A DNA stretch of 64,000 nt, taken from NCBI RefSeq assembly GCF_003991155.1, contig NZ_CP031293.1; one strand, written 5' to 3'. The position numbers and the translations under genes are program-made. Below the pieces are notes generated by a model. The model searched no databases, had not been told where the DNA came from, and worked only from the letters and a program-made list of their open reading frames with translations. Positions within the stretch are counted from its first letter, which is position 1; each line of letters starts with the position of its first letter. Origin of the DNA: Escherichia coli (GTDB lineage: Bacteria > Pseudomonadota > Gammaproteobacteria > Enterobacterales > Enterobacteriaceae). Shown here piece by piece: positions 4,898 to 50,094 of the stretch.

Positions 4898-5032
4898 TAT
4901 GAGAGTTAATGTTTTGATTTTAAATGATTAATACGTGTTGGATAAATGAGTAACCCCCATAAGAACCCCCAAATGACTTTGCGTAAGGGAATGAGGCTAA
5001 AATACACAATCGAATCAATTCTTAGAGCTTTA

Positions 5033-5878
5033 TTATGAAGGTAACACTCCCGGATAGTGTTTCGCAATAATCTCATTAAGTCTGTCAACCAGTTCTGGTT
5101 TCCTGAACGTGATGTGCGCGGAGCCCTTCTTAAAGTATCTGATGCTGAACATCTCATCTTCATAGTCCTCTTTACCCTGAACTGAGTGGATGTGATCATC
5201 CAGACGAATAGTGATGTTTTCCCGGTTGTCGGGGATCGGTTTGCCGCTGAACAGGTGTAGCATTCTTTCCAGATCGGCAAGTCGATCTGCCTGTTGCCCG
5301 GTGATAAGATGAAACCCCCACCGGTCCCACCTCACCAGGTTGTTGACGATAATTTTACTGCCAAATTTACAGGGCGAGTTGGTTTTGTAATCCCAGCCCA
5401 GTCCTCTGAAAACGTTGATCACCCCTCGCTCAAACACCTCATCCTTATTCTGGTGCAGTTGTTCAAATGTGCTCAGAATGTTCGCTTCATTGATTTTCGG
5501 AAAATTATCATATTCCAGTGACCGGTACCATGTATCACGGGCCTGTGCATCCATTAAGGAAAGCATCCCTGAACGTTGCATCAAGTTTCGCCAGATTTCA
5601 CGGTCAAGGTTCCGGGTGATGGCTTTCATTGCGGTTTCCGGTTTTTCCATCAGCCAGCAACCGCAGCGAAAATCCTGTTTCATCGCCCAGTCCAGGGCGG
5701 TTTTACCTCCAATACTTTCTGTCAGTACTGAGATTTCTGCCAGTTGCCGGATAAGTGTGTCGATTTGCAGCAGCGCACTCTTTCGTACAGCCAGAATGTG
5801 GCGGATACTGGTTGAGCAGATAACGTCCGTATGCCCGTTGACCAGTTCCGGGCGGGAGATTGTGATATCTGACATCAT
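5033..5878 (-). CDS. Conserved island-end protein, probably DUF4942 family
   Basis: 281-aa ORF at the integrase-distal island end downstream of the CbtA module; family assignment from memory. Confidence 0.55.
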   Translation of the reverse strand: MMSDITISRPELVNGHTDVICSTSIRHILAVRKSALLQIDTLIRQLAEISVLTESIGGKTALDWAMKQDFRCGCWLMEKPETAMKAITRNLDREIWRNLMQRSGMLSLMDAQARDTWYRSLEYDNFPKINEANILSTFEQLHQNKDEVFERGVINVFRGLGWDYKTNSPCKFGSKIIVNNLVRWDRWGFHLITGQQADRLADLERMLHLFSGKPIPDNRENITIRLDDHIHSVQGKEDYEDEMFSIRYFKKGSAHITFRKPELVDRLNEIIAKHYPGVLPS

Positions 5879-6202: not shown

Positions 6203-6657
6203 TCAGCGCTGGCATCCAGATGAATGAGACTGACGCCATAACGTCGGGTAAGTGTGATAACCAGACGACGGAACGTTTTTGACAGCCCCAGGCGTTTAAG
6301 CCGCAGAACCGGATATGACCACGCATCGGTACGTAACAGATATCCGCTACCTGTGAAATGAATCCATTCTGATTCACCGAAGTCACTGGTCTGGTGTGAC
6401 AGCGAGTACAGCCAGGCGTTGTCCGTTTCCGTGATATGTGCGGTACTGCAGCGTATACCGGTCAGGGCAGCAAATGGTGGCATGCAGTCTGTTGAGGCCC
6501 GGTCAGATGCATCAACAACACGAAGGGAGTGGCCATTATCACAGACCACGTTAATCAGTTCAGCGAGATTAACACCATCGACGTCAACGACAATGCGTCC
6601 CATGTTCAGTGCCTGCACGTTAATGCTGTCGGCTTCCAGCGTCAGGGCCAGTTTCAT
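6169..6657 (-). CDS. Hypothetical protein, possibly DUF5983 family
   Basis: 162-aa ORF whose start overlaps the toxin stop (ATGA coupling). Confidence 0.5.
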
Positions 6658-11989: not shown

Positions 11990-12874
11990 TCAGAACAGAC
12001 GATCCCACAGTGTTTCCAGCAGGCGGATAATGCGGTCCCGGGCTTTACGCAGAAGCTGTAACATCCAGACCGGAAAAGTGAACCGGGCAACGGCGTCGTC
12101 AAAACTTTTCCCGATGGCGTCACCAAAAGTCTGTTGTGCGTGTTTCTGGGCCTGTTCAGAGCGGTTTTCCCCCCGGATATGTGAATAAACCGCACTGGTT
12201 GCCTGCGGTGGCAGGGCGTGGATCATCAGCGACACAAACGCCGGAAGATTCCAGCCGACAGGCGCAGCAACGGGGAGTACCGGAAATGATGACGGGAACA
12301 GGGTTGCCACCCTGGCTGTAACAGTTGCCAGTGAGAGTTCCTGGTGACGGGATGGGCATTTTTCTGTGGCATTCCATTCTTCAGCAGGAAACACGCGATC
12401 GGCATGGCTGAGAACAAACAGAAAACGCGAGGGATCTGCACCTTCATTCAGTAAAAACTGATGCATGGCAATATCGGCAGCATACGCACGTTCATCAGCC
12501 CGCAGGATCCAGATAATCAGATCCAGTTCCGGCAGTAACTGACGGTAAAGCTCCCGGTATTCCTGATCATGCTGCGGTGTCTCACCAATGCCGGGCAGAT
12601 CGACCAGCGTCATTCTGCGTTCACCAATCTGCAGGGTGAGGCGATGAGCCTGGCGGGTGCAGCCGTTCAGGGGATGCGTGGCGCAGATACGGGACTGAAA
12701 AATGGCATTACACAGACTGCTTTTGCCGGAGCCGGATTTACCCATAATGCCAATCACGGGCTCGTAATGAATAACACCGTGGAGATGTTCAAGGATTTTC
12801 TGGCGAATTTCTTCAGGAAGAAACGTCAGATATGATTTCACTTGCGCGGAGAGGGAAGAATTGCTGAATGGCAT
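11990..12874 (-). CDS. YfjP/YkfA-like GTPase
   Basis: 294 aa; P-loop GIMGKSGSGKSS and DLPG motif. Confidence 0.8.
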   Translation of the reverse strand: MPFSNSSLSAQVKSYLTFLPEEIRQKILEHLHGVIHYEPVIGIMGKSGSGKSSLCNAIFQSRICATHPLNGCTRQAHRLTLQIGERRMTLVDLPGIGETPQHDQEYRELYRQLLPELDLIIWILRADERAYAADIAMHQFLLNEGADPSRFLFVLSHADRVFPAEEWNATEKCPSRHQELSLATVTARVATLFPSSFPVLPVAAPVGWNLPAFVSLMIHALPPQATSAVYSHIRGENRSEQAQKHAQQTFGDAIGKSFDDAVARFTFPVWMLQLLRKARDRIIRLLETLWDRLF

Positions 12875-17643: not shown

Positions 17644-18163
17644 ACCCGGTAAAACAGCATCCGGTGCCTGAGCGTATACCACGGTCAGGACGTTGGCTGA
17701 CGCCCTTAGCTCGTTTTCTGATAATCGCCCTGAAGTCATGAAACGGTATTTTTATCTGCTTCCATTCTCATGTTCATATTTCCCCTTACACTTTCACTGT
17801 CTGTCATTGGAAGTACCGATTTATTTTGGTGCTGCTCACTTACTGCCATTCACGGAAGAGGATAGTGGTGAACCGTACGATCCTGACTGCTGGCGAGGGA
17901 AGGTTCAGAACTGGTATGAGGTTTAGTGCTGGAAGATGACTTTGAATCCCGGACTGAGCAGTGAGGGGGCAGTGGGAGGATGCTCTGGTGTAACAGGCCT
18001 GGATTGCAAAATACAAAACCGGTTGTACACTCGTAACGGGCAAAAGGATACGGGCAATAACACGTGGTACCCGGTGAGACAGGATCTTGTATCGCATTAC
18101 CGGGAATATTCTGACAGGTGAAATGTTCTGATAAGAATCATCCTGAGGGAGGATACAACGGAT

Positions 18164-18616
18164 ATGCACGTTATTAACAGCGGCATTCGTGATGTGAAAT
18201 TTGGTGAAAATGTGAAAGTCGTCATGCCAGTAAACCTCTATGAATGTGAACTGGGGGATGATGTTTTTATCGGTCCCTTTGTGGAAATACAGAAGGGATG
18301 CATCATTGGCAAGCGGAGCCGAATTCAGTCCCACAGTTTCATCTGTGAGAACGTCATTTTAGGTGATGGCTGTTTCATCGGTCATGGCGTAACTTTTGCT
18401 AATGATCTTTTTAAGTGTGGTGGTCCCGATGCCTCTGCAGAAAGCTGGATACGTATCGTATTAGGTAACACTGTAACAGTGGGTAGCGGAGCGACTATTT
18501 TAACAACAGAAATTTGCAGTGGAGCAGTGATTGGGGCTGGTAGTGTGGTTACAAAGCCCGTGCTGGTAAAAGGCGTGTATGCCGGTAATCCAGCCAGACT
18601 TTTGAGAACGCTTTAA
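18164..18616 (+). CDS. Hexapeptide-repeat (left-handed beta-helix) acetyltransferase
   Basis: 150 aa with repeated [LIV]G..[LIV] hexapeptide pattern. Confidence 0.65.
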   Translation: MHVINSGIRDVKFGENVKVVMPVNLYECELGDDVFIGPFVEIQKGCIIGKRSRIQSHSFICENVILGDGCFIGHGVTFANDLFKCGGPDASAESWIRIVLGNTVTVGSGATILTTEICSGAVIGAGSVVTKPVLVKGVYAGNPARLLRTL

Positions 18617-19151
18617 TTATTATATTTACAAATCGTAAGCCAGAATTGACTCCAGACCATTATGTGCCTTATTCACCATGAGTGAAATGCGGGATGAGCC
18701 TGCAAGTTAAGAGGATATCGGAAACCAGCAACCAGGGCAGTGAGAGCGCTGTCGGGGTCATTGATATCTCCGAAGGGAAGCCCTGGTATAAGGTGTTTGC
18801 ATAAAATTATTAAACAGGCTCATTTTTAGCGATCCTCATGAAATTCATCGTAACATCCTGAATATCTTATGGTGTTTCCTGTCATCTCCGGTATTTATTC
18901 CGTTCATGCAAATAACCTGATGAAACAGGGCAACGCCATAAAACCGGATAAGGACAACATGGATTAACGATAAAAATTGTGATCCTGTTTTCATTTTTCA
19001 CTTTTTGATTCTGGACTGGTATTTACATTTCTAAAAACAGGCATAAAGTGAACACATGTTTGATTTTGAATATATGTTCAACTCTATCTGCGTGGTCGAA
19101 TAGAAATACAGATTTATTATTTTTGTGTTTTTAAATGTCAGGAGATGTGCC

Positions 19152-21098: not shown

Positions 21099-22349
21099 AT
21101 GGACATCATGAGAAGTATAGTGGGAATGGCAGTATTGCTGATAATTGCATTTCTACTATCAGTGAATAAAAAACGTATCAGTTTACGTACCACAGGAGCT
21201 GCACTGGTTCTTCAAATCGCGATTGGTGGGATCATGCTCTATTTCCCCCCGGGGAAATGGCTGGTTGAACAGGCTGCACTGGGCGTACATAAAATTATGT
21301 CTTACAGTGATGCGGGCAGTGCCTTTATTTTTGGCTCTCTGGTAGGGGACAAAATGGACGTACTGTTCGATGGGGCGGGTTTTATCTTCGCCTTCCGTGT
21401 ACTTCCTGCCATCATTTTTGTTACAGCGCTTATCAGTCTGCTGTACTACATCAGAGTGATGGGGGGGCTTATCCGTATTCTGGGGGGGATTTTTCAGAAA
21501 GCTCTGAACATAAGTAAAGTTGAGTCATTTGTGGCAGTAACGACAATTTTCCTGGGGCAAAACGAGATCCCGGCAATTGTAAAACCGTTTATTAATCGTC
21601 TGAATCGTAATGAATTATTTACTGTCATCTGCAGTGGGATGGCTTCGATTGCCGGTTCAATGATGATCGGCTATGCCGGGATGGGGGTTCCGATTGACTA
21701 TTTGCTGGCGGCGTCGTTGATGGCGATCCCGGGGGGGATCCTTTTTGCCCGTATTCTGAGTCCGGCCACAGAAGAATCAAAAGTCACTTTTGAAAATCTT
21801 TCTTTCACTGATACTCCTCCCAAAAGTGTTATTGAAGCAGTGGCCAGCGGGGCGATGACCGGGTTGAAAATCGCTGTCGGAGTTGCAACGGTAGTGATGA
21901 CCTTTGTTGCTATTATTGCTCTGATTAACGGTATAATCGGTGGTATCGGAGGCTGGTTTGGTTATGGTAATATTACCCTTGAGGGCATTTTCGGCTGGAT
22001 TTTGGCTCCCCTTGCGTGGATCATGGGCGTTGACTGGGCGGATGCTTCACTGGCAGGAAGTCTGATTGGTCAGAAGCTGGCAATTAACGAATTTGTTGCT
22101 TATCTCAATCTTTCACCCTATTTACAGCCAGGCAGTACGCTTGATGTGAAAACCACCGCAATTATTTCTTTTGCACTGTGTGGTTTTGCCAACTTTGGCT
22201 CCATTGGTGTGGTGGTGGGTGCCTTTTCAGCCATATCACCTCAGCGTGCACCTGAAATTGCACAACTGGGCATGCGTGCACTGGCGGCGGCCACCCTGTC
22301 AAACCTGATGAGTGCGACTATCGCTGGTTTTTTCATTGGGCTGGCATAA
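21099..22349 (+). CDS. NupC-family nucleoside transporter (PsuT/YeiM-like)
   Basis: 416-aa polytopic membrane protein with NupC-like sequence. Confidence 0.8.
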   Translation: MDIMRSIVGMAVLLIIAFLLSVNKKRISLRTTGAALVLQIAIGGIMLYFPPGKWLVEQAALGVHKIMSYSDAGSAFIFGSLVGDKMDVLFDGAGFIFAFRVLPAIIFVTALISLLYYIRVMGGLIRILGGIFQKALNISKVESFVAVTTIFLGQNEIPAIVKPFINRLNRNELFTVICSGMASIAGSMMIGYAGMGVPIDYLLAASLMAIPGGILFARILSPATEESKVTFENLSFTDTPPKSVIEAVASGAMTGLKIAVGVATVVMTFVAIIALINGIIGGIGGWFGYGNITLEGIFGWILAPLAWIMGVDWADASLAGSLIGQKLAINEFVAYLNLSPYLQPGSTLDVKTTAIISFALCGFANFGSIGVVVGAFSAISPQRAPEIAQLGMRALAAATLSNLMSATIAGFFIGLA

Positions 22350-22367
22350 AAAATACAATCCCGGGTG

Positions 22368-23462
22368 TTACCCCCGGGATGTTTTTAACAGATATTGCGC
22401 GTTATTAACGGAAAGTGTTGGGTTATTGATGCTGGTGCTGGCACGTGACAGTGCTGCACATGCCATCGCAAAGTGAGCACTTTCCTGGAAACTACTTCCT
22501 TCCAGAAAACTGTAAAGCAGACCTGCCATAAAGCCATCATCTGCACCAAAGCTGTCCACAACGGCATGAACGGGCGGTGTGAGCAGAAATTGTTCTCCCT
22601 CTCTTTGGCTACAGAAAACGGATTCATCTCCCATCCAGACAAAAATCTGTTGCACACCCTGCTGATGTAGTGCGTTCACTGCGGTGAGTAGATCGGTCTC
22701 ATTGTTGACAGGGGAACCCCATAATATCTCCAGTTCTTTTTGTGTGGGTTTCAGGGTATGGATATGCGGAAGCCAGTTTTTTACATTAACAGCCTTAAAT
22801 TTCGACACTGTATCAATAAAAACGGGAATGCCGTCAGCGACCGTAAAGATCCATTCAAGGGCGGCAGGTGTCAGATTACAGTCAGCCAGCACCACGCCAG
22901 CGTGACGGATTAACATACGTGAGGCGTCCAGCAACTGCGGCGTCAGTTGTTGCAGAATATGGGTATCATTAATCGCCATCACTGTTTCTGCCTGTAGGTC
23001 GGCGATGGAGACATAAGTTGAAGTATTTTGTCCGTTCAGTCGAATACAATTGGTGACATTAACGCCGGCCAGGCGGGTCTGCTCCAGTAATGTTTCGCCA
23101 TAAAAATCATTGCCTACAGCAGATATCAGATGCACATTGCGGCCCAGAAGGGCGAGATTATGGGCGATGTTGCGTCCGACACCTCCGGCAGAGCAGTAAA
23201 TACTGCCCGGACTGGAGGATTTCTGTGGATAATGGATATCCGCCACCCCACGGATATCCATGTTAATCGCCCCAAGAACAACACAGTATTCCTGTTCTGT
23301 CAGGATGTAGCCTTTCCCTTTAATCGCACCTTTGCGCATCAGATCCATAATGTGTGCAGCAACACGCGACCGACTGATTTGTAAAATCTCAGCAATTTCA
23401 TTCTGCTGGATCAGTGGGTTGTGACGCAGGATCCTGAGTATCTCTTTTTCTCTGTTGTCCAT
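22368..23462 (-). CDS. HTH-domain + PfkB kinase fusion protein (YeiI-like)
   Basis: 364 aa; N-terminal winged-helix (ILRILRHNPLIQQNEIAEILQISRSRVAAHI) plus PfkB kinase motifs. Confidence 0.75.
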   Translation of the reverse strand: MDNREKEILRILRHNPLIQQNEIAEILQISRSRVAAHIMDLMRKGAIKGKGYILTEQEYCVVLGAINMDIRGVADIHYPQKSSSPGSIYCSAGGVGRNIAHNLALLGRNVHLISAVGNDFYGETLLEQTRLAGVNVTNCIRLNGQNTSTYVSIADLQAETVMAINDTHILQQLTPQLLDASRMLIRHAGVVLADCNLTPAALEWIFTVADGIPVFIDTVSKFKAVNVKNWLPHIHTLKPTQKELEILWGSPVNNETDLLTAVNALHQQGVQQIFVWMGDESVFCSQREGEQFLLTPPVHAVVDSFGADDGFMAGLLYSFLEGSSFQESAHFAMACAALSRASTSINNPTLSVNNAQYLLKTSRG

Positions 23463-23900
23463 GATTATGCAACTGCCTGTTCGGTTTTTCGTCAGCGATC
23501 ATCAAAGTAAATAGCTTCGTTTTTCCCGGTGAACGTGAAGCTAGGGGAGATTATACTTCCGGATGTTCATTCAGGGCAGAAGAATAATACATCAGTTAAT
23601 TTTCTGTTAGTACTTTGTAGTCGAATGTTTGGGGAGTGTGTCTGAATGACAGCCAGATGGAATGACTTTTTGTAGCCAGGTCATGACTACGACTCATACG
23701 CTATTCTTAATTCTTATTTCTTTCCATTATACGCAAGTATTTTTAATTTAGGTTTATTACTATAATTATATTCACTTTGTCTTTATTCACTCTGTTTTTA
23801 CTTACTCTCTATCTTTACTCATTCCATTACTCTGACCCTCACCCGATTATACTTACTCCCTTCCTTGTCTAATCTTCATTGCCACCATTATCATGGTATC

Positions 23901-23927
23901 CACCTTCTCCACCTTCTCCACCTTCTC
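23901..23927. repeat. Tandem repeat 3 x CACCTTCTC inside a ~200-bp polypyrimidine (CT-rich) tract
   Basis: Direct reading of sequence. Confidence 0.6.
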
Positions 23928-24762
23928 CTTCATTCAATCATAACTACTGTAATTCATACGATACTCAGATAAGTTATTTTACTACGTTGTTGCTAATATC
24001 TACCTGTTATCAGTCTTCACTGAAACAGCAATTGATTTTAGTCATTATCCATAATGAACTGTATTGACTTAACGATGATTGTTGTTGACCTGAAGTGTTT
24101 TAACTATTCTGGTAAATATCAATACTTCTGTCATCACTGATTAACTGGATGTTTACTCTTTGATAAGGTATCCATGATTTCGTCATGTTTAACAGCGCAG
24201 GATAAACAATGAAATTAACAGAGTGAATTCCTGATTATATTTGTTCGTTTCTGATTATCTTGTATGTTAAACAAAATGAAAATTATCCATCCATGGTATA
24301 TTTTATTCTGGTACCGTGTACCCGTTAACGCTCATGTTTTGAAGTGAGTTGTTTTTAACAGATTAAATGAGAGTGTATGATTTTATCAGGTTACAGATAT
24401 GTGTTGGCCTTGTACACGTTTTTGCAGACTCACTGAGAGCAAGTTTGTAGTTTATGATGTGATTGGTCGCAATATGTTTCTTAATCTCCAGGTAGTGGGG
24501 TTTTAGCTCGTATTTTACAGTATTTCGTGATGTTTTATTGAGTCTGTATTTTCTTTACTCCTCGTTTATCTCATCTCTTTAGCTAATACCATCAGATAAT
24601 CCATTTCTTTCTGCATAATGCTGCGTATCGTTAATAACCCGTCGTATCCATTCTGCTACAGCATGCCTGATAAATACCATCTGTAAGTTATTACCGTTAT
24701 GAGCGAAAGCATTAATTCGTTCACAGAGCTTAAAACATCATTAACTTTCAGGAGTCATCAAC

Positions 24763-25329
24763 ATGCCTAAATCTTACACACCAAACTGGTTTTTTACCGC
24801 TTTACTTGACAATCACATCAATCAAATGCTGGCACGTTATTCCTGCCTGCGAGCTTTACGGATGGATTTCTTCTACAGGAAAGATACGCCTGATTTCTTA
24901 CAACCTGATCATCGCTGGCTTGAATTGCAGTTGCGTATGATGCTGGAACAGGTTGAACAATTTGAAAATATCGTTGGCTTCTTCTGGGTGATTGAATGGA
25001 CGGCTGATCATGGTTTTCATGCGCATGCGGTTTTCTGGATCGATCGTCAGAGGGTTAAAAAAATATATCCCTTTGCGGAGCGGATTACGGAATGCTGGCG
25101 GTCTATTACGCATAACAGCGGTTCGGTACATCGCTGTACATATCAGCCGCATTATACATACAACATCAACATTCCTGTGCGCCACAACGATCCTGAAAGC
25201 ATCAATAATATTCGCGGTGCCCTGCATTATCTGGCGAAAGAAGAGCAAAAAGACGGGTTGTGTGCCTACGGCTGCAATGAAGTTCCTGAACGTCCTGCTG
25301 CAGGGCGTCCTCGTAAGCCTCACTTCTGA
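24763..25329 (+). CDS. YagK/YfjJ-family protein (paralog)
   Basis: 188 aa; …LRALRMDFFYRKD… motif; upstream region similar to that of the 16912 gene. Confidence 0.5.
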   Translation: MPKSYTPNWFFTALLDNHINQMLARYSCLRALRMDFFYRKDTPDFLQPDHRWLELQLRMMLEQVEQFENIVGFFWVIEWTADHGFHAHAVFWIDRQRVKKIYPFAERITECWRSITHNSGSVHRCTYQPHYTYNINIPVRHNDPESINNIRGALHYLAKEEQKDGLCAYGCNEVPERPAAGRPRKPHF

Positions 25330-25575
25330 AGCTTAAGGCCTGAGCCTCCGCTCCTGGAAACACTCCGTCGGTAAAACCTTACCACCTTGCTTAATGATGT
25401 GAACTGAAGTCAACGGAGATCATTCATCCTGAACCTGAATCCGGTGTTCTGTCCCTTATCTTCCCGTTCTGCTTCAGTTCTTCACTTATTCCATCAACCC
25501 CATCCGCAAACCATAACACGTCAGCGCATCCACGGGCAGGACGCGTTGTGGGCTGCGCATAACGGAACATATCTT

Positions 25576-25959
25576 ATGAATGCTATTCCTTATTTCGACT
25601 ATAGCCTGGCACCCTTCTGGCCATCTTATCAGAACAAAGTCATCGGCGTCCTTGAGCGTGCGCTACGTGAGCAGTCCTGCGCCCGGGTACGGCGGATCCT
25701 GCTTCGCCTGCCGGGGGAACATGACAACATCTTCAGTGACAGAAAAACCTGGTTCGGTATGGCCTTTATCGAAACTGTCAGTGCGCTGATGAATGCAACC
25801 CCCGGACGCGACCTCTGCTGGCTCCTGACCCGTCATCCTGAAAAGCCGGAATACCACGTGGTGCTGTGTGTCAGACAGGAGTATTTCGACGGCCCTGAAC
25901 TGGACCGGCTGATTCTGGATGCCTGGAGCAACGTACTGGGCTTCGCGTCACCGGGTTAA
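25576..25959 (+). CDS. YagK/YfjJ-family-like protein, short (paralog or fragment)
   Basis: ORF 25444..25959 trimmed to Met45; …ARVRRILLRLPGEHD… and …YHVVLCV… motifs. Confidence 0.4.
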   Translation: MNAIPYFDYSLAPFWPSYQNKVIGVLERALREQSCARVRRILLRLPGEHDNIFSDRKTWFGMAFIETVSALMNATPGRDLCWLLTRHPEKPEYHVVLCVRQEYFDGPELDRLILDAWSNVLGFASPG

Positions 25960-26219
25960 GCAAAGCCGTATCAGAAGCAGATCACCCGGGATGTAGTACT
26001 GGACAGTCGTTCGCCGGACTGCGAAGACCTGTTTAAAGACCTGATCTGGGCATTCAGCGATTTTGCCCGCGATCGTCGTGGTGTGTGCGATCCGGAAGCT
26101 CGTTGCCTTGCCGGTAATCCCGGGTATCCCGGATCTGCAGGACCGTTCTGAAAACACGGCTCAGCATCTTCTTCCGCATTTGCACAACCTTCATAAATCT
26201 CACAAAGGACATTCTGACC

Positions 26220-26453
26220 ATGTTGACCACAACAAACCACGACAGCGTGTTGCTGCGTGCCGACGATCCCCTGATCGACATGAACTACATCACCAGTTTC
26301 ACTGGCATGACAGATAAATGGTTTTACAAGCTGATCAGTGAAGGCCATTTCCCTAAACCCATCAAACTGGGGCGCAGCAGCCGCTGGTACAAAAGTGAGG
26401 TGGAGCAGTGGATGCAGCAACGAATCGAGGAATCCCGGGGGGCAGCAGCATGA
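26220..26453 (+). CDS. AlpA-family phage/island transcriptional regulator
   Basis: …MNYITSFTGMTDKWFYKLISEGHFPKPIKLGRSSRWYKSEVEQWM… is a typical AlpA HTH. Confidence 0.7.
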   Translation: MLTTTNHDSVLLRADDPLIDMNYITSFTGMTDKWFYKLISEGHFPKPIKLGRSSRWYKSEVEQWMQQRIEESRGAAA

Positions 26454-26704
26454 AACGTGTTGTAATGCCGGCGCTGGTATTGCGGAAATCAGCCCTGTCC
26501 CCGATGCTGGCGACACTCCCGCTCATCTTTCAGCTGACTCCTCTGGTCAGCCAACTGTTTGTCATCATTTCCTGACTGATTCGTCATTCCCTTCGTCCCG
26601 CCAGTCGCTGGTGTTTGTATTGTACCGTGCCGGTGTTGATGTGCGCTTTCCGTGTGTCTGCACCGGCTTAACAAAATTCAACAGGGTTTGAAAAGGAACA
26701 TTTC

Positions 26705-28978: not shown

Positions 28979-29398
28979 AGTGTCCCCTAGTGTTGGCGCA
29001 AAAAAGACCAAAACGGCAGTGGCAATGGCATTCTCCAGCGTTTAAACGGAGAGCCGGATGCGTTGAAAGGTGCTGCTCCGGTTCGGAGAGGAGATACTGG
29101 GAAATAGTTCGACTACCCCCTATCTCTTACTCTACTCTGGACAGGTTAACGATGAGATACCTCACAGTAATATTTGCTCTGTTCGCAAGAAAGCTAGTGG
29201 GATGGGTAATGTTGTTGGACTGAATCGCCACGGATAATCAGGCATTTCTGAGTTGTTTCAAGAAGGCGGCATTATTTGTGCTGCTCGTATCCCGGTCATC
29301 AGTGAACCGGTGAACGTAAATCAGCCGGAGGCACGATTTGGGCAAAAGAGATTTCCTGACAGGCAAGAAGCCAGCGAATGGCTGGCTTCCTGAAGGAT

Positions 29399-30646
29399 TT
29401 AGCCAAATTTAGGTAACACGTTAAAGACGTTACCGAACCAGCATAAAATTACGGTTATACCAAAGAGAATGACAATCGCCGGAATAAGATTGCCGCCCCA
29501 GACTGTGAACATCTGATTGGGAAATTTCTTGCGGGCTTTGATTGCCAGCACTGCGGGAATAATGACCGCCCAGATGGTGGCGCACAGTCCGGCACCGCCG
29601 ATCCCGTAAATAAAGCCGTTCGGGAAGATCAGATACAACAACGCGGGTGGCAGGAAGGTTAACAGCACGGTTTTGAAACGCCCGGCGTGGGAGTTATCAA
29701 TCTTAAACAGATCCGCCAGATAATCGAACAATCCCAGCGTGACACCAAAGAACGAACTGGCAACAGCTAAGTTAGAGAACACCAGCAGGCAAAACTCGAT
29801 AATCCCATGCTGTTTGGTGCCGAGGAATGATTTCACCAGCGAATCAACGTTGCCGCCTGAGGAGATTATCGCCTTAAAGCTTTCTCGCGGGATATTCCCC
29901 ATCGTGCAATAGAGCCAGAAGAGATAAATCACCAGCGCCAGCAGCGAACCGAAGACCACGCTTTTGATTAGCTTATCTTTGCGTTTTCCATAGCAAATAA
30001 TCAGGCTGGGAATATTGCCGTGGAAACCAAATGACGCCAGACACACCGGCAAAGCCATAAAGATATACGGGAAGTAAGACTTACCCGCAGTGGAGCTGGC
30101 TGCATCGCGCAGAATGGAATAATCGGCCTGGAAGAAGAGAGAGCCAAACACGATCACAAAGGAGATAATCTTCAGCCCGAGGAACAATGAGGTAATACGA
30201 CTGGCGGCTAACGAACTTATCCACAATACGCTGGCAACGAAAATGGCTGTGCAGACTCCGACAATACGTGGATTAGCGTGATAACTCAGATTCATTGATA
30301 TCGTTTCGCTAATGATTGCGCCGTTAGCAGAAATATAGGCATAAGTGAGGATATAGAGAACGAAGGCAACGGTAATACCGCTGATAATGTTCCAGGTGTT
30401 ACCGATTAAATCTTTGGCGATGGTGTTAAAACTGGATCCGACGGGATAGTTTAAATTTGCTTCTAATAACAATAACCCGGAATGAAGCATTGAAAACCAG
30501 GCAATGATAAGGATAAAGGCTCCCCAGAAAAACCAGGCACCGGCAAGATCAACAGGTAAAGCAAACATCCCACCGCCAATTACCGTACCGGCTATAACCA
30601 TAACACCCCAAAATGCAGAGTGTTTTTTTTCAGCTTGTTCAGTCAT
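29399..30646 (-). CDS. tnaB: Low-affinity tryptophan permease TnaB
   Basis: 415 aa; matches E. coli TnaB. Confidence 0.9.
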   Translation of the reverse strand: MTEQAEKKHSAFWGVMVIAGTVIGGGMFALPVDLAGAWFFWGAFILIIAWFSMLHSGLLLLEANLNYPVGSSFNTIAKDLIGNTWNIISGITVAFVLYILTYAYISANGAIISETISMNLSYHANPRIVGVCTAIFVASVLWISSLAASRITSLFLGLKIISFVIVFGSLFFQADYSILRDAASSTAGKSYFPYIFMALPVCLASFGFHGNIPSLIICYGKRKDKLIKSVVFGSLLALVIYLFWLYCTMGNIPRESFKAIISSGGNVDSLVKSFLGTKQHGIIEFCLLVFSNLAVASSFFGVTLGLFDYLADLFKIDNSHAGRFKTVLLTFLPPALLYLIFPNGFIYGIGGAGLCATIWAVIIPAVLAIKARKKFPNQMFTVWGGNLIPAIVILFGITVILCWFGNVFNVLPKFG

Positions 30647-30737
30647 GATGCCACCTTTAGATGAAGGCTATTTTTATTATTGAGGATGTAGGGTAAGAGA
30701 GTGGCTAACATCCTTATAGCCACTCTGAGTGTTTTAA

Positions 30738-32153
30738 TTAAACTTCTTTCAGTTTTGCGGTGAAGTGACGCAATACTTTCGGTTCGTAGGTAAAGGTTAA
30801 CCCTTTAATATTCGCCGCGTTCTCTTTCACATGTTTAAAGGCTTCAATAATGAAGTCCATATGTGTTTGAGTATATGTTGCGCGCGGAATGGTTAAACGC
30901 AGCAGTTCAGCCGGGCATGGCAGTTGTTTACCGGTTTTCGGATCGCGGCCTAACAGGAAAGAGCCAATTTCTACCGCACGGATACCGGCGACTTTATACA
31001 GCTCGCAGGCCAGCGCCTGTGCCGGGAACTGATCTGCCGGGATATGCGGCAGTAGTTTACCGGCATCAACGAATGCCGCGTGACCGCCCGCCTGCTGGCA
31101 GACAACGCCAATCTCTTCCAGGCCATCGACCAGATACTGCACCTGCGCAATACGATAAGCCAGCCAGTCCAGATTCATGCCGTCATACAGACCTACCGCC
31201 AGACGCTCCATAGCGCCGCCTTCCAGGCCGCCATATGTCGGGAAGCCTTCCTGCACCACGCAAAGGGTTCTGCATTCGGTGTACACATCAAAGAAGCTGT
31301 CGTCTTTCATGCACAGCAGGCCGCCCATCGGCACCATCGCATCTTTCTTGGCGGACATCGCCAGCATATCGGCATATTTGTAGGTTTCGCGGGTGATTTG
31401 CTCGATGGTCCAGTCTTTGTATTCTGCTTCACGCTGCTTGATGAAATAGGCGTTTTCGGCAAAGCGTGCGGAGTCCATTACCACCGGAATATCGTATTTC
31501 TTCGCGATGCTGTACATCGCTTTTAAGTTTGCCAGTGAAACCGGCTGACCACCTGCGGAGTTACTGGTGATGGTTGCAACGATATACGGCACGTTATTCG
31601 GGCCAACTTCTTCAATACCGCGTTCTAATCCCTCAAGGTCAAAGTTGCCTTTAAAGTCGTAACGCACGCCCGTATCGAAGGCTTCTTTGATATAGACGTT
31701 ACGCACGGTACAGCCGTTAATCTGGCTATGGCCCTGCGTGGTATCAAAGAAATAGTTAGAGAACGCCACCATTTTGCTGCGATCCAGGCCTTTTTCCTGC
31801 TCGCGTTTTTTAATCAGTACCGGAATATAGATTTGCTCTGCACCACGGCCCTGGTGAGTCGGAATAGTGTATTGATAACCAAAGATATTTTTCACTGACT
31901 CGGCTAACGCGTAGTAGCTGCGGCTGCCGCTGTAAGCTTCGTCGCCGCGCATCATCGCGGCCTGCATACTCTGCGTCACCGCCCCGGTACCGCTGTCGGT
32001 CAGTAAATCGATAAACACATCTTCACTATCCAGCAGGAACGGGTTCATGCCGGCTTTAATAATTGCTTCTTCACGATAAGCGCGAGTGGTACGTTTTACT
32101 GGCTCAATAACACGAATGCGGAACGGTTCAGGGAGATGTTTAAAGTTTTCCAT
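30738..32153 (-). CDS. tnaA: Tryptophanase TnaA
   Basis: ORF 30738..32168 trimmed to [11 protein letters not shown] (471 aa); matches E. coli TnaA. Confidence 0.9.
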
Positions 32154-32359
32154 TACGTAATCCTTCATTTATTTTAAGGACAGAAAATTACGGAGATATT
32201 GCAAATGCAATACCCGATAGTTCGCTAAAATATTTGCAAGAGACATCATTTATAAAAATGAATGATAGTCTTTACAAAAGCAGAAATAAGATATGCCAAA
32301 CAGACAGGTTAGATGGAATTCAATCTATTTGACAAAAATGATGGTTACAGAAAGGCAAG

Positions 32360-32434
32360 TTAAGGGTGGTGTTCAACAATCTTGTTGTCGATATTGAACC
32401 ATTTTGAGGTCACACATATATGTAAGATATTCAT
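32360..32434 (-). CDS. tnaC: tna operon leader peptide TnaC (24 aa)
   Basis: Minus-strand ATG AAT ATC TTA CAT ATA TGT GTG ACC TCA AAA TGG TTC AAT ATC GAC AAC AAG ATT GTT … CCT TAA gives MNILHICVTSKWFNIDNKIV..P with Trp12 and Pro24, ~205 bp upstream of tnaA. Confidence 0.75.
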   Translation of the reverse strand: MNILHICVTSKWFNIDNKIVEHHP

Positions 32435-32509
32435 AATGCACTTATCCTCGAAAGACACGAGGTTACAGTATAATACTCAAGAAATTTGTCTATCCTGAAA
32501 TTGTTTAAA

Positions 32510-49998: not shown

Positions 49999-50023
49999 TT
50001 GGCGGAAGATCACAGGAGTCGAA
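49999..50023. repeat. attL core: 25-bp direct repeat overlapping the 3' end of selC
   Basis: Identical to 4873..4897. Confidence 0.8.
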
Positions 50024-50094
50024 CCTGCCCGGGACCGCTGGCGGCCCCAACTGGATTTGAAGTCCAGCCGCCTCACCGGAGACGACGATCTTCC
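50000..50094 (-). tRNA. selC: tRNA-Sec (selenocysteine tRNA)
   Basis: Reverse complement matches the 95-nt E. coli selC sequence GGAAGATCGTCGTCTCCGGTGAGGCGGCTGGACTTCAAATCCAGTTGGGGCCGCCAGCGGTCCCGGGCAGGTTCGACTCCTGTGATCTTCCGCCA. Confidence 0.95.

Follow-up and report, generated by a model that had tools for sequence, protein, structure and literature searches.

The intergenic VNTRs used for MLVA typing of Escherichia coli are built from perfect head-to-tail units, vary by whole units among otherwise identical strains and change through slipped-strand mispairing. A 9-bp array that we examined on an E. coli genomic island resembles them in these respects. However, it lies on an accessory selC island (376 of 5426 complete genomes) and not in the core genome, and it sits within a predicted leader of extreme composition. 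Contingency loci offer a second comparison, since they also have a hypermutable tandem repeat near a promoter-like site, but the unit studied here is 9 bp long and non-coding, does not lie between promoter elements and has no evident on/off target.

Rut regions occur in untranslated leaders, for example at lambda tR1, and Rho and H-NS silence foreign, untranslated transcription units. Like such systems, the pyrimidine-rich tract that carries the array offers at least 78 nt of C-rich, G-poor, unstructured and untranslated sequence, placed where a predicted transcript begins, and the surrounding DNA is AT-rich and foreign. It differs from rut regions in being unusually long and repeat-built, and it is a candidate by virtue of its composition and predicted structure.

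Direct repeats beside the nick site are typical of Rep origins. The locus recalls the plus-strand origins of HUH Rep proteins (Ff gpII, parvovirus NS1/Rep repeats and CRESS-virus iterons) in having a conserved AT-rich core just upstream of a HUH gene, followed by short direct repeats, and in some of the lineages that carry its motif there is also a flanking inverted repeat. This inverted repeat is not conserved, however, similarity to the M13 origin is not significant, and a consensus -10 hexamer is a simpler account of the core.

A further comparison is with the promoter of yagK in the CP4-6 element of E. coli K-12. The yagK-yagL spacer holds a constitutive RpoD promoter, TTTAGA-16-TATAAT, which was flagged for H-NS in genomic SELEX (PMC3946193). 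Our locus likewise stands upstream of a YagK/YfjJ-family gene and has the same core (TAGGT, an AT-rich segment and TATAAT) followed by TACTC/TATTCAC boxes; in the paralogous K-12 yagK upstream region, the related sequence TAGGTATTATATAAT precedes TACTC and TATTCAC boxes. The two differ in that TTTAGG of our motif lies just 8 nt from TATAAT, which leaves no -35 element at a functional spacing, and in that the predicted leader is 994 nt long, as opposed to about 190 nt for the K-12 yagK promoter. Furthermore, a PWM derived from the 188-aa subfamily to which our gene belongs gives no score to the K-12 sites.

Feature map of the gap

The DNA analyzed is a 64,000-nt stretch, here called the window. 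It represents a selC genomic island of E. coli, with tRNA-Sec (window positions 50000-50094) as the integration site. The original prediction had described a CT-rich segment in a gene-free region between a YeiI-like gene and a YagK-family gene, and this arrangement was borne out. The gap measures exactly 1300 bp (23463-24762), has a GC content of 0.30-0.38, and is bounded on the left by a yeiI-like PfkB sugar kinase gene with an N-terminal HTH (22368-23462, minus strand) and on the right by a YagK/YfjJ-type gene on the plus strand. Its features, and the gene that follows it, are these:

23463-23741, no strand assigned: segment specific to the cargo, preceding the minus-strand yeiI-like kinase gene and lying outside the conserved module
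23742-23768, plus strand: near-invariant 27-nt motif TTTAATTTAGGTTTATTACTATAATTA, with a consensus -10 hexamer TATAAT at 23761-23766
23769-23821, plus strand: decayed repeat of 15-bp period that opens the tract and has units resembling TATTCACTCTGTCTT (Tandem Repeats Finder, 3.4 copies, 72% matches)
23771-23935, plus strand: hypervariable pyrimidine-rich, C-rich and G-poor tract with degenerate YACTC-containing units (TATTCACTYTG, TTTACTC, CTTACTC)
23853-23933, minus strand: spurious open reading frame MK(EKV)nDTMIMVAMKIRQGRE through the repeat, a PGAP 'hypothetical protein'
23865-23894, plus strand: alternative site of sigma-70 type, TTGTCT-18-TATCAT, whose end is 5 nt ahead of the repeat (consensus scan only)
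23899-23928, plus strand: 9-bp VNTR, three copies of TCCACCTTC and a partial TCC (Tandem Repeats Finder and directly read arrays)
23936-24656, plus strand: AT-rich, mosaic, non-coding body of the module, moderately conserved, about 720 nt
24657-24762, plus strand: highly conserved gene-adjacent region of about 105 nt, including the ribosome-binding site AGGAG at 24750-24754
24763-25329, plus strand: YagK/YfjJ-type 'inovirus Gp2-type' protein of 188 aa, a predicted HUH endonuclease

The right-hand part of the gap is not specific to this island. About 1 kb of it (~23738-24762) recurs, unannotated, in other islands at 78-89% identity; this homology starts at gap positions 276-280, and the alignment of these copies gives the same boundary. 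The resulting module invariably lies upstream of a series of four genes, encoding the 188-aa YagK-type protein, a hypothetical protein of ~190 aa, an AlpA-family HTH protein and a hypothetical protein of ~182 aa, with the YagK-type gene as the first of this backbone operon. Its left-hand neighbors vary and include pseudouridine and sugar-kinase genes (in the window), dsdCXA, ireA with IS elements, a TIR-domain gene and YfjI. The tract belongs to the YagK-side backbone of the island and not to the yeiI-like cargo, a point that the original prediction had missed. At least one copy of part of the gap is held by 1565 of 5426 complete E. coli genomes (29%). A search of plasmids returned 12 records, all of them island fragments, and no match was obtained when a phage collection was searched with the region. 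The antiterminator AlpA of P. aeruginosa was considered as an analogue of the island AlpA protein and dropped, as the latter is a 77-aa Phage_AlpA of a different kind. The P. aeruginosa protein is larger and has a C-terminal HTH at residues ~128-142 (PMC9371919).

Copy number of the 9-bp array

Tandem Repeats Finder reports 3.3 copies of TCCACCTTC at 23899-23928, with a period of 9 and 100% matches; the threefold CACCTTCTC noted in the original prediction is the same array read in a different phase. Among perfect tandem repeats with units of 7-12 and at least three copies, this array is the only one in the window, and 100 dinucleotide-preserving shuffles yielded 0 repeats of the same class.

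The version of the gap and selC island found in the window is carried by 376 of 5426 complete E. coli genomes (~7%). The 1300-bp gap is 100% identical in many of the complete genomes, including NCTC86 and 2016C-3878, and CE10 and IAI39 match it apart from how many repeat units they have. The 376 carriers represent all copy numbers from 2 through 11, with arrays of 2, 3, 4, 5, 6, 8 and 10 copies established by direct reading and those of 7, 9 and 11 inferred from match spans. The eight loci that were read directly contain 2, 3, 3, 4, 5, 6, 8 and 10 perfect units, and the 200-bp flanks on either side of the array show 0 mismatches across all eight. In an evenly spaced (stratified) sample of 20 carriers from the ranking, 13 (~65%) have three copies, and the others have 2, 4, 5, 6, 8 or 10. 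Split-alignment spans in the ranked list assign 7-11 copies to 38 of the 376 carriers (10%), with 11 records at seven copies, 16 at eight, 5 at nine, 4 at ten and 2 at eleven. One pair of strains suggests a recent change by a single unit: PK12 has two copies and AR Bank #0349 has three, and their matches begin at the same chromosomal coordinate, 87464.

A short unit in perfect head-to-tail copies, whole-unit differences between strains and conserved flanks together define a VNTR. The array is a genuine VNTR, a known kind of element, and not a phase-variation locus, H-DNA, a structured RNA or a pseudogene. The suggestion that the region is slippage-prone was thus correct, and comparison of copy number across related strains, proposed as its check, did reveal variation. 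The same proposal took an absence of variation or of conservation as a sign of decayed sequence; on the contrary, the repeat varies and the module around it is conserved.

The array was found only in the lineage that combines selC with psu cargo. The paralogous modules carry TCCACCTTCTCC only (1.3 copies) or diverged versions of it, and therefore the array is a lineage-specific expansion. Copy numbers cluster at 3 and at 7-8; the second cluster, together with the frame-preserving 9-bp unit, could be a hint of selection or mere clonal structure.

Array length also affects genome annotation. PGAP annotates the minus-strand MK(EKV)n frame only in strains with at least eight copies of the unit, and the frame is intact in just one of 12 module types. 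Since it is called only from eight units upward, we regard this frame as a length artefact.

Conservation of the module and its 27-nt motif

The CT-rich segment of ~200 bp singled out in the original prediction is real: positions 23760-23960 are 73.6% pyrimidine, with only 10 G residues. Its best-delimited form, 23771-23935, is 78% pyrimidine and has 58 C and 8 G residues. The highest pyrimidine fraction of any 200-nt stretch in the window falls at this tract (0.75, compared to a mean of 0.49 and a standard deviation of 0.047), and so does the largest excess of C over G in any 78-nt stretch on either strand (23851-23928, with 32 C and 4 G). The tract is the most extreme anomaly of strand composition in the 64-kb window. 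YACTC occurs six times within it, and the units of the 15-bp-period repeat at its start were also covered by a repeat-family search. A perfect 12-nt inverted repeat pairs 23785-23796 with 24217-24228; as loci L003 and L007 carry no covariation that would maintain it, it was set aside as a chance match or a relic.

An alignment of 12 paralogous modules resolves four zones, namely the motif, the tract, the body and the gene-adjacent block. The tract is the least constrained and most variable of these parts. Its length ranges from 43 to 169 nt, it tolerates large deletions, and divergence across its aligned columns reaches 32%, with many indels in addition. Mean pairwise divergence in the module body is 13%, compared to 7.4% at 4-fold degenerate sites of the adjacent gene, and the gene-adjacent block diverges by 2-6%; its windows (starts 24657-24735) are the only ones in the module that match the conservation of the 27-nt motif. 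Pyrimidine content nevertheless stays within 0.73-0.79 in all 12 tracts, and this constancy might reflect function rather than shared ancestry. However, an analysis of the transition/transversion pattern revealed no substitution bias that keeps pyrimidines (Fisher p = 0.26-0.51), and therefore shared ancestry and slippage suffice to explain the composition of the tract.

Two other properties had escaped the original prediction, namely that the tract begins at the edge of a deeply conserved motif and that the tract itself varies rather than being conserved. The motif, written TTTAATTTAGGTTTATTACTATWATTA for window positions 23742-23768 in the 12-copy alignment, is the most conserved element of the module, and the tract starts 3-5 nt after it. 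Mean pairwise difference is 0.027 within the motif and 0.24 elsewhere in the module. The window has a single copy of the motif, and 16 loci likewise have one per module.

A PWM search gives exactly one match per locus, upstream of the YagK-type gene and in the same orientation, in E. coli, Klebsiella, Serratia, Enterobacter, Salmonella, Mixta and contigs from MAGs and read assemblies, whereas neither the rest of the window nor M13 contains a further match. YagK-type homologues that carry the motif, with 39-59% amino acid identity, are present in Klebsiella, Serratia, Enterobacter, Salmonella diarizonae, Mixta, Citrobacter-like contigs and a second E. coli lineage. One example from these relatives, TTAATTTAGGTTAATTAATATAATTA, shares 23 of 26 positions with the motif. 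The motif stands upstream of the gene and in its orientation irrespective of the side on which alpA lies. The distance from motif to ATG is 132-301 nt in the six other Enterobacterales lineages sampled and 791-995 nt in the main E. coli module. Just past TATAAT, at about +1 to +10, lies a box (A)CTCACTCC or TACTC, which is single-copy in most other lineages; YACTC occurs three to six times in the main E. coli module, as opposed to once in most of the others. The leaders have more C than G in all seven lineages (GC skew -0.2 to -0.49).

Several of these features point to a promoter. TATAAT or TATTAT, as expected of a sigma-70 -10 element, was found in 15 of the 16 motif-bearing loci scored, which represent seven lineages, and we read the motif as a promoter because in most lineages this consensus -10 element is as far from the ATG as is normal for a promoter. 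The SELEX promoter of K-12 yagK supports this reading by analogy. From TATAAT, transcription is predicted to start at ~23773-23774, which coincides with the start of the tract at 23771. Direct reading of the alignments of motif loci revealed no conserved -35 hexamer 16-18 nt from TATAAT, and a consensus promoter scan did not call the TATAAT site of the motif. The second conserved block, 24657-24762, could hold the real proximal promoter, and the distal motif would then serve some other purpose in E. coli.

Candidate explanations and their implications

We favor, with moderate confidence, the reading that the array is a young and essentially neutral slippage VNTR within a promoter-proximal, untranslated leader of the island backbone operon that is probably silenced by Rho and H-NS. 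The transcription start, the leader and its Rho dependence are predictions from sequence. The 27-nt motif would serve as the operon promoter, combining the -10 element with a regulator site, and the tract would form the 5′ end of the transcript within an untranslated leader of ~1 kb. In E. coli the YACTC box after the motif has been amplified and has since degenerated into the polypyrimidine tract, on the simplest view by repeated duplication, and the 9-bp array may be the latest of these duplications, its length altered by replication slippage. The C-rich, G-poor, unstructured and untranslated leader is expected to load Rho, and the joint action of Rho and of H-NS bound to the AT-rich DNA would leave the operon largely silent. 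Each unit gained or lost would make the leader 9 nt longer or shorter, a change with little or no effect on selection.

Other explanations assign the array or the tract a function, and the one closest to our own takes the tract to be a rut attenuator of the YagK operon whose copy number acts as a selected 'rheostat' of rut strength or leader length, and hence of expression between lineages. The 78-nt segment with the highest C-over-G excess of the window lies in the tract and has the extent of C-rich, G-poor sequence expected of a rut region (at least ~70-80 nt). The tract RNA is untranslated, with no conserved open reading frame, and is predicted to be unstructured (-6.1 kcal/mol per 167 nt, z = -1.1). 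The prevalence of C over G in the leaders of all seven lineages, the several YC dinucleotides added by each unit and the spread of copy numbers, with its two clusters, also agree with tuning. Nevertheless, we consider selected tuning unlikely, given that the array is confined to one cargo lineage, that the tract shrinks to as little as 43 nt in other modules that look functional, that substitutions show no tendency to preserve composition and that the clusters may be clonal. A switch of the phase-variation kind, in which repeat number would alter the spacing of promoter elements and turn a neighboring gene on or off as in contingency loci, is far less probable. The polymorphism of the array and the sigma-70-like site that ends 5 nt before it are compatible with such a switch, but the array lies downstream of the -10 element, neither between -35 and -10 elements nor within an open reading frame as in contingency loci. 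Furthermore, a 9-bp unit cannot shift the reading frame and the closest start codon is 835 nt away. The predicted site itself is deleted in four of the 12 modules, and the scan that called it produced only four sigma-70-like sites in the region, compared to 6.7 expected from shuffles. Two proposals derived from the original prediction, decayed coding sequence and a structural element, we regard as very nearly excluded. The view of the tract and gap as the remains of a gene, for instance one for a repeat-containing surface protein, draws on a unit length that is a multiple of three, on the minus-strand frame that PGAP calls across arrays of at least eight copies and on a 198-aa gene upstream of YagK in distant relatives. 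However, the (EKV)n frame owes its existence to the repeat alone, no open reading frame of at least 20 codons is intact in all 12 divergent module copies, Pfam searches with all stop-free translations of the gap matched no family, and tblastn with the 198-aa protein of the relatives found nothing in the gap. Formation of an H-DNA triplex or slipped structure by a polypurine-polypyrimidine mirror repeat, with effects on replication or recombination, has equally little chance of being correct. This idea agrees with the strong strand asymmetry and with the clustering of island homology breakpoints at the tract, but these breakpoints are explained by the divergence of the tract, which limits megablast extension. 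H-DNA is unlikely because the longest uninterrupted pyrimidine run is 11 nt, and direct reading shows that the unit lacks mirror symmetry. At the RNA level, a sliding consensus fold of the 12-sequence alignment on both strands gave z-scores like those of column shuffles. Rfam identified only tRNA-Sec and a group II intron domain in the whole window, both elsewhere, and at a permissive E-value across 22000-26500 it returned one chance snoRNA match below the gathering score.

The final alternative concerns the motif and its neighboring gene. The adjacent HUH endonuclease might recognize or nick the motif and bind the YACTC units as iterons, in which case the two would form an origin-like element for rolling-circle replication or mobilization of the excised island. 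As would be required for a Rep origin, the neighboring gene encodes a predicted HUH endonuclease, in which the HUH and YxxK motifs are invariant and the predicted fold is Rep/NS1-like. The motif accompanies this gene wherever alpA lies, and it is more conserved than the protein itself (23 of 26 nt, compared to ~50% amino acid identity). Moreover, the motif is flanked by inverted repeats (GGGAGTG/CACTCCC and GAGTAA/TTACTC) in two lineages, where changes in one arm are matched in the other, and a 10-bp hairpin built from the same box is present at K-12 yagK. Such inverted repeats are present in L016-type loci, L036 and K-12 yagK, however, and are missing from the main E. coli module and four other lineages, which make up most of those compared. 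A resemblance to the gpII nick site of M13 (TTAATAG...ACTC) was rejected, as the top local alignments are located in other parts of M13 and their scores do not exceed those of shuffled sequences. The boxes produced by amplification are degenerate and, given tracts as short as 43 nt, dispensable, and a consensus TATAAT at a normal promoter distance from the ATG is more simply a promoter. When PDB sequences were searched with a profile built from the YagK-type alignment, no meaningful match appeared, and in a literature search the repeat and motif strings were not found and the protein family names appeared as annotation labels only. We consider an origin improbable, somewhat more so than selected tuning and less so than a phase switch. 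If the origin reading were true, a domesticated inovirus-like module for rolling-circle replication or mobilization would be part of the island backbones found in 29% of complete E. coli genomes, and the turnover of repeats in the tract would be a case of iteron evolution.

The repeat by itself is of little importance. As a polymorphic marker with 2-11 copies, it could be of use in subtyping the ~7% of E. coli that carry this selC island, and its length accounts for an artefact that recurs in annotations, the MK(EKV)n 'hypothetical proteins'. The context outweighs the repeat. YagK/YfjJ-family genes are part of the unexplained 'y-ome', and many pathogenicity and fitness islands have them in their backbone. 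A 26-27-nt cis motif that is more conserved than the protein offers an experimental handle on the control of this backbone and on whether the HUH protein acts on its own upstream DNA, and the C-rich leader, expanded to ~1 kb in E. coli, offers a second such handle.

Reading frames around the repeat and the motif

A short reading frame runs antisense over the 9-bp array, which varies from 2 to 11 copies among E. coli strains.

23853-23933, minus strand: MK(EKV)nDTMIMVAMKIRQGRE open reading frame (12391-12516 and 454-597 in the compared loci L001 and L027)

PGAP annotates this product as a "hypothetical protein" only where the genome has at least eight repeat units, and the call is an annotation artefact that follows repeat length. 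In Citrobacter, Enterobacter, Salmonella diarizonae and Mixta loci (L011-L016), a conserved open reading frame of ~198 aa (MKDYKPRYEEL...) lies directly upstream of the 27-nt motif, ~600 bp ahead of the YagK-type gene; tblastn found no counterpart of this protein in the window.

Backbone operon and island cargo

25444-25959, plus strand: hypothetical gene of ~190 aa following the YagK-type gene (5114-5689 in locus L002)
~17900-18640: longer of the two "inovirus Gp2 family" genes, 243 aa (5450-6181 in L001; 31707-32438 in L008)
29049-29135, plus strand: group II catalytic intron domain (RF00029)
~29400-32450, minus strand: tnaC-tnaA-tnaB (tryptophanase) operon (16916-19951 in L008)

The gene after YagK is an annotated pseudogene with an internal stop in a strain identical to the window, and in the window its reading frame has a GTG start and encodes only 171 aa, so decay of the backbone operon may be under way in this lineage. 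The 243-aa gene lies on the far side of the pseudouridine cargo from the YagK-type gene and recurs at the equivalent position in other islands (L004, L009 and L020); thus, two HUH-family genes bracket the variable cargo. The Rfam intron match (50 bits, above the gathering score) falls within the island, with the AlpA module on one side and the tna genes on the other. The selC island of the matching strain 2016C-3878 bears the tnaC-tnaA-tnaB operon, with IS66 and IS110 fragments on either side.

Upstream elements of the YagK/YfjJ genes

24657-24697: block ranking second in conservation within the module

The high-affinity motif of H-NS is TCGATAAATT, to which CCTGATAAATACC within this block bears a partial likeness. 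H-NS might nucleate here, or the block might act as a proximal promoter.

~4950-5220 of locus L045, minus strand: K-12 yagK upstream region
6396-6547 of locus L044: K-12 yfjJ upstream region

Both K-12 regions carry elements related to those of the module, namely TTAATTT, GAGTAAAA, TAGGT-AT-rich-TATA(AT) and YACTCC boxes. Upstream of yagK, a perfect 10-bp hairpin (TACTCTTACT/AGTAAGAGTA) lies directly 3′ of the constitutive RpoD promoter mapped by genomic SELEX (PMC3946193). A single cis architecture may serve the whole YagK/YfjJ superfamily.
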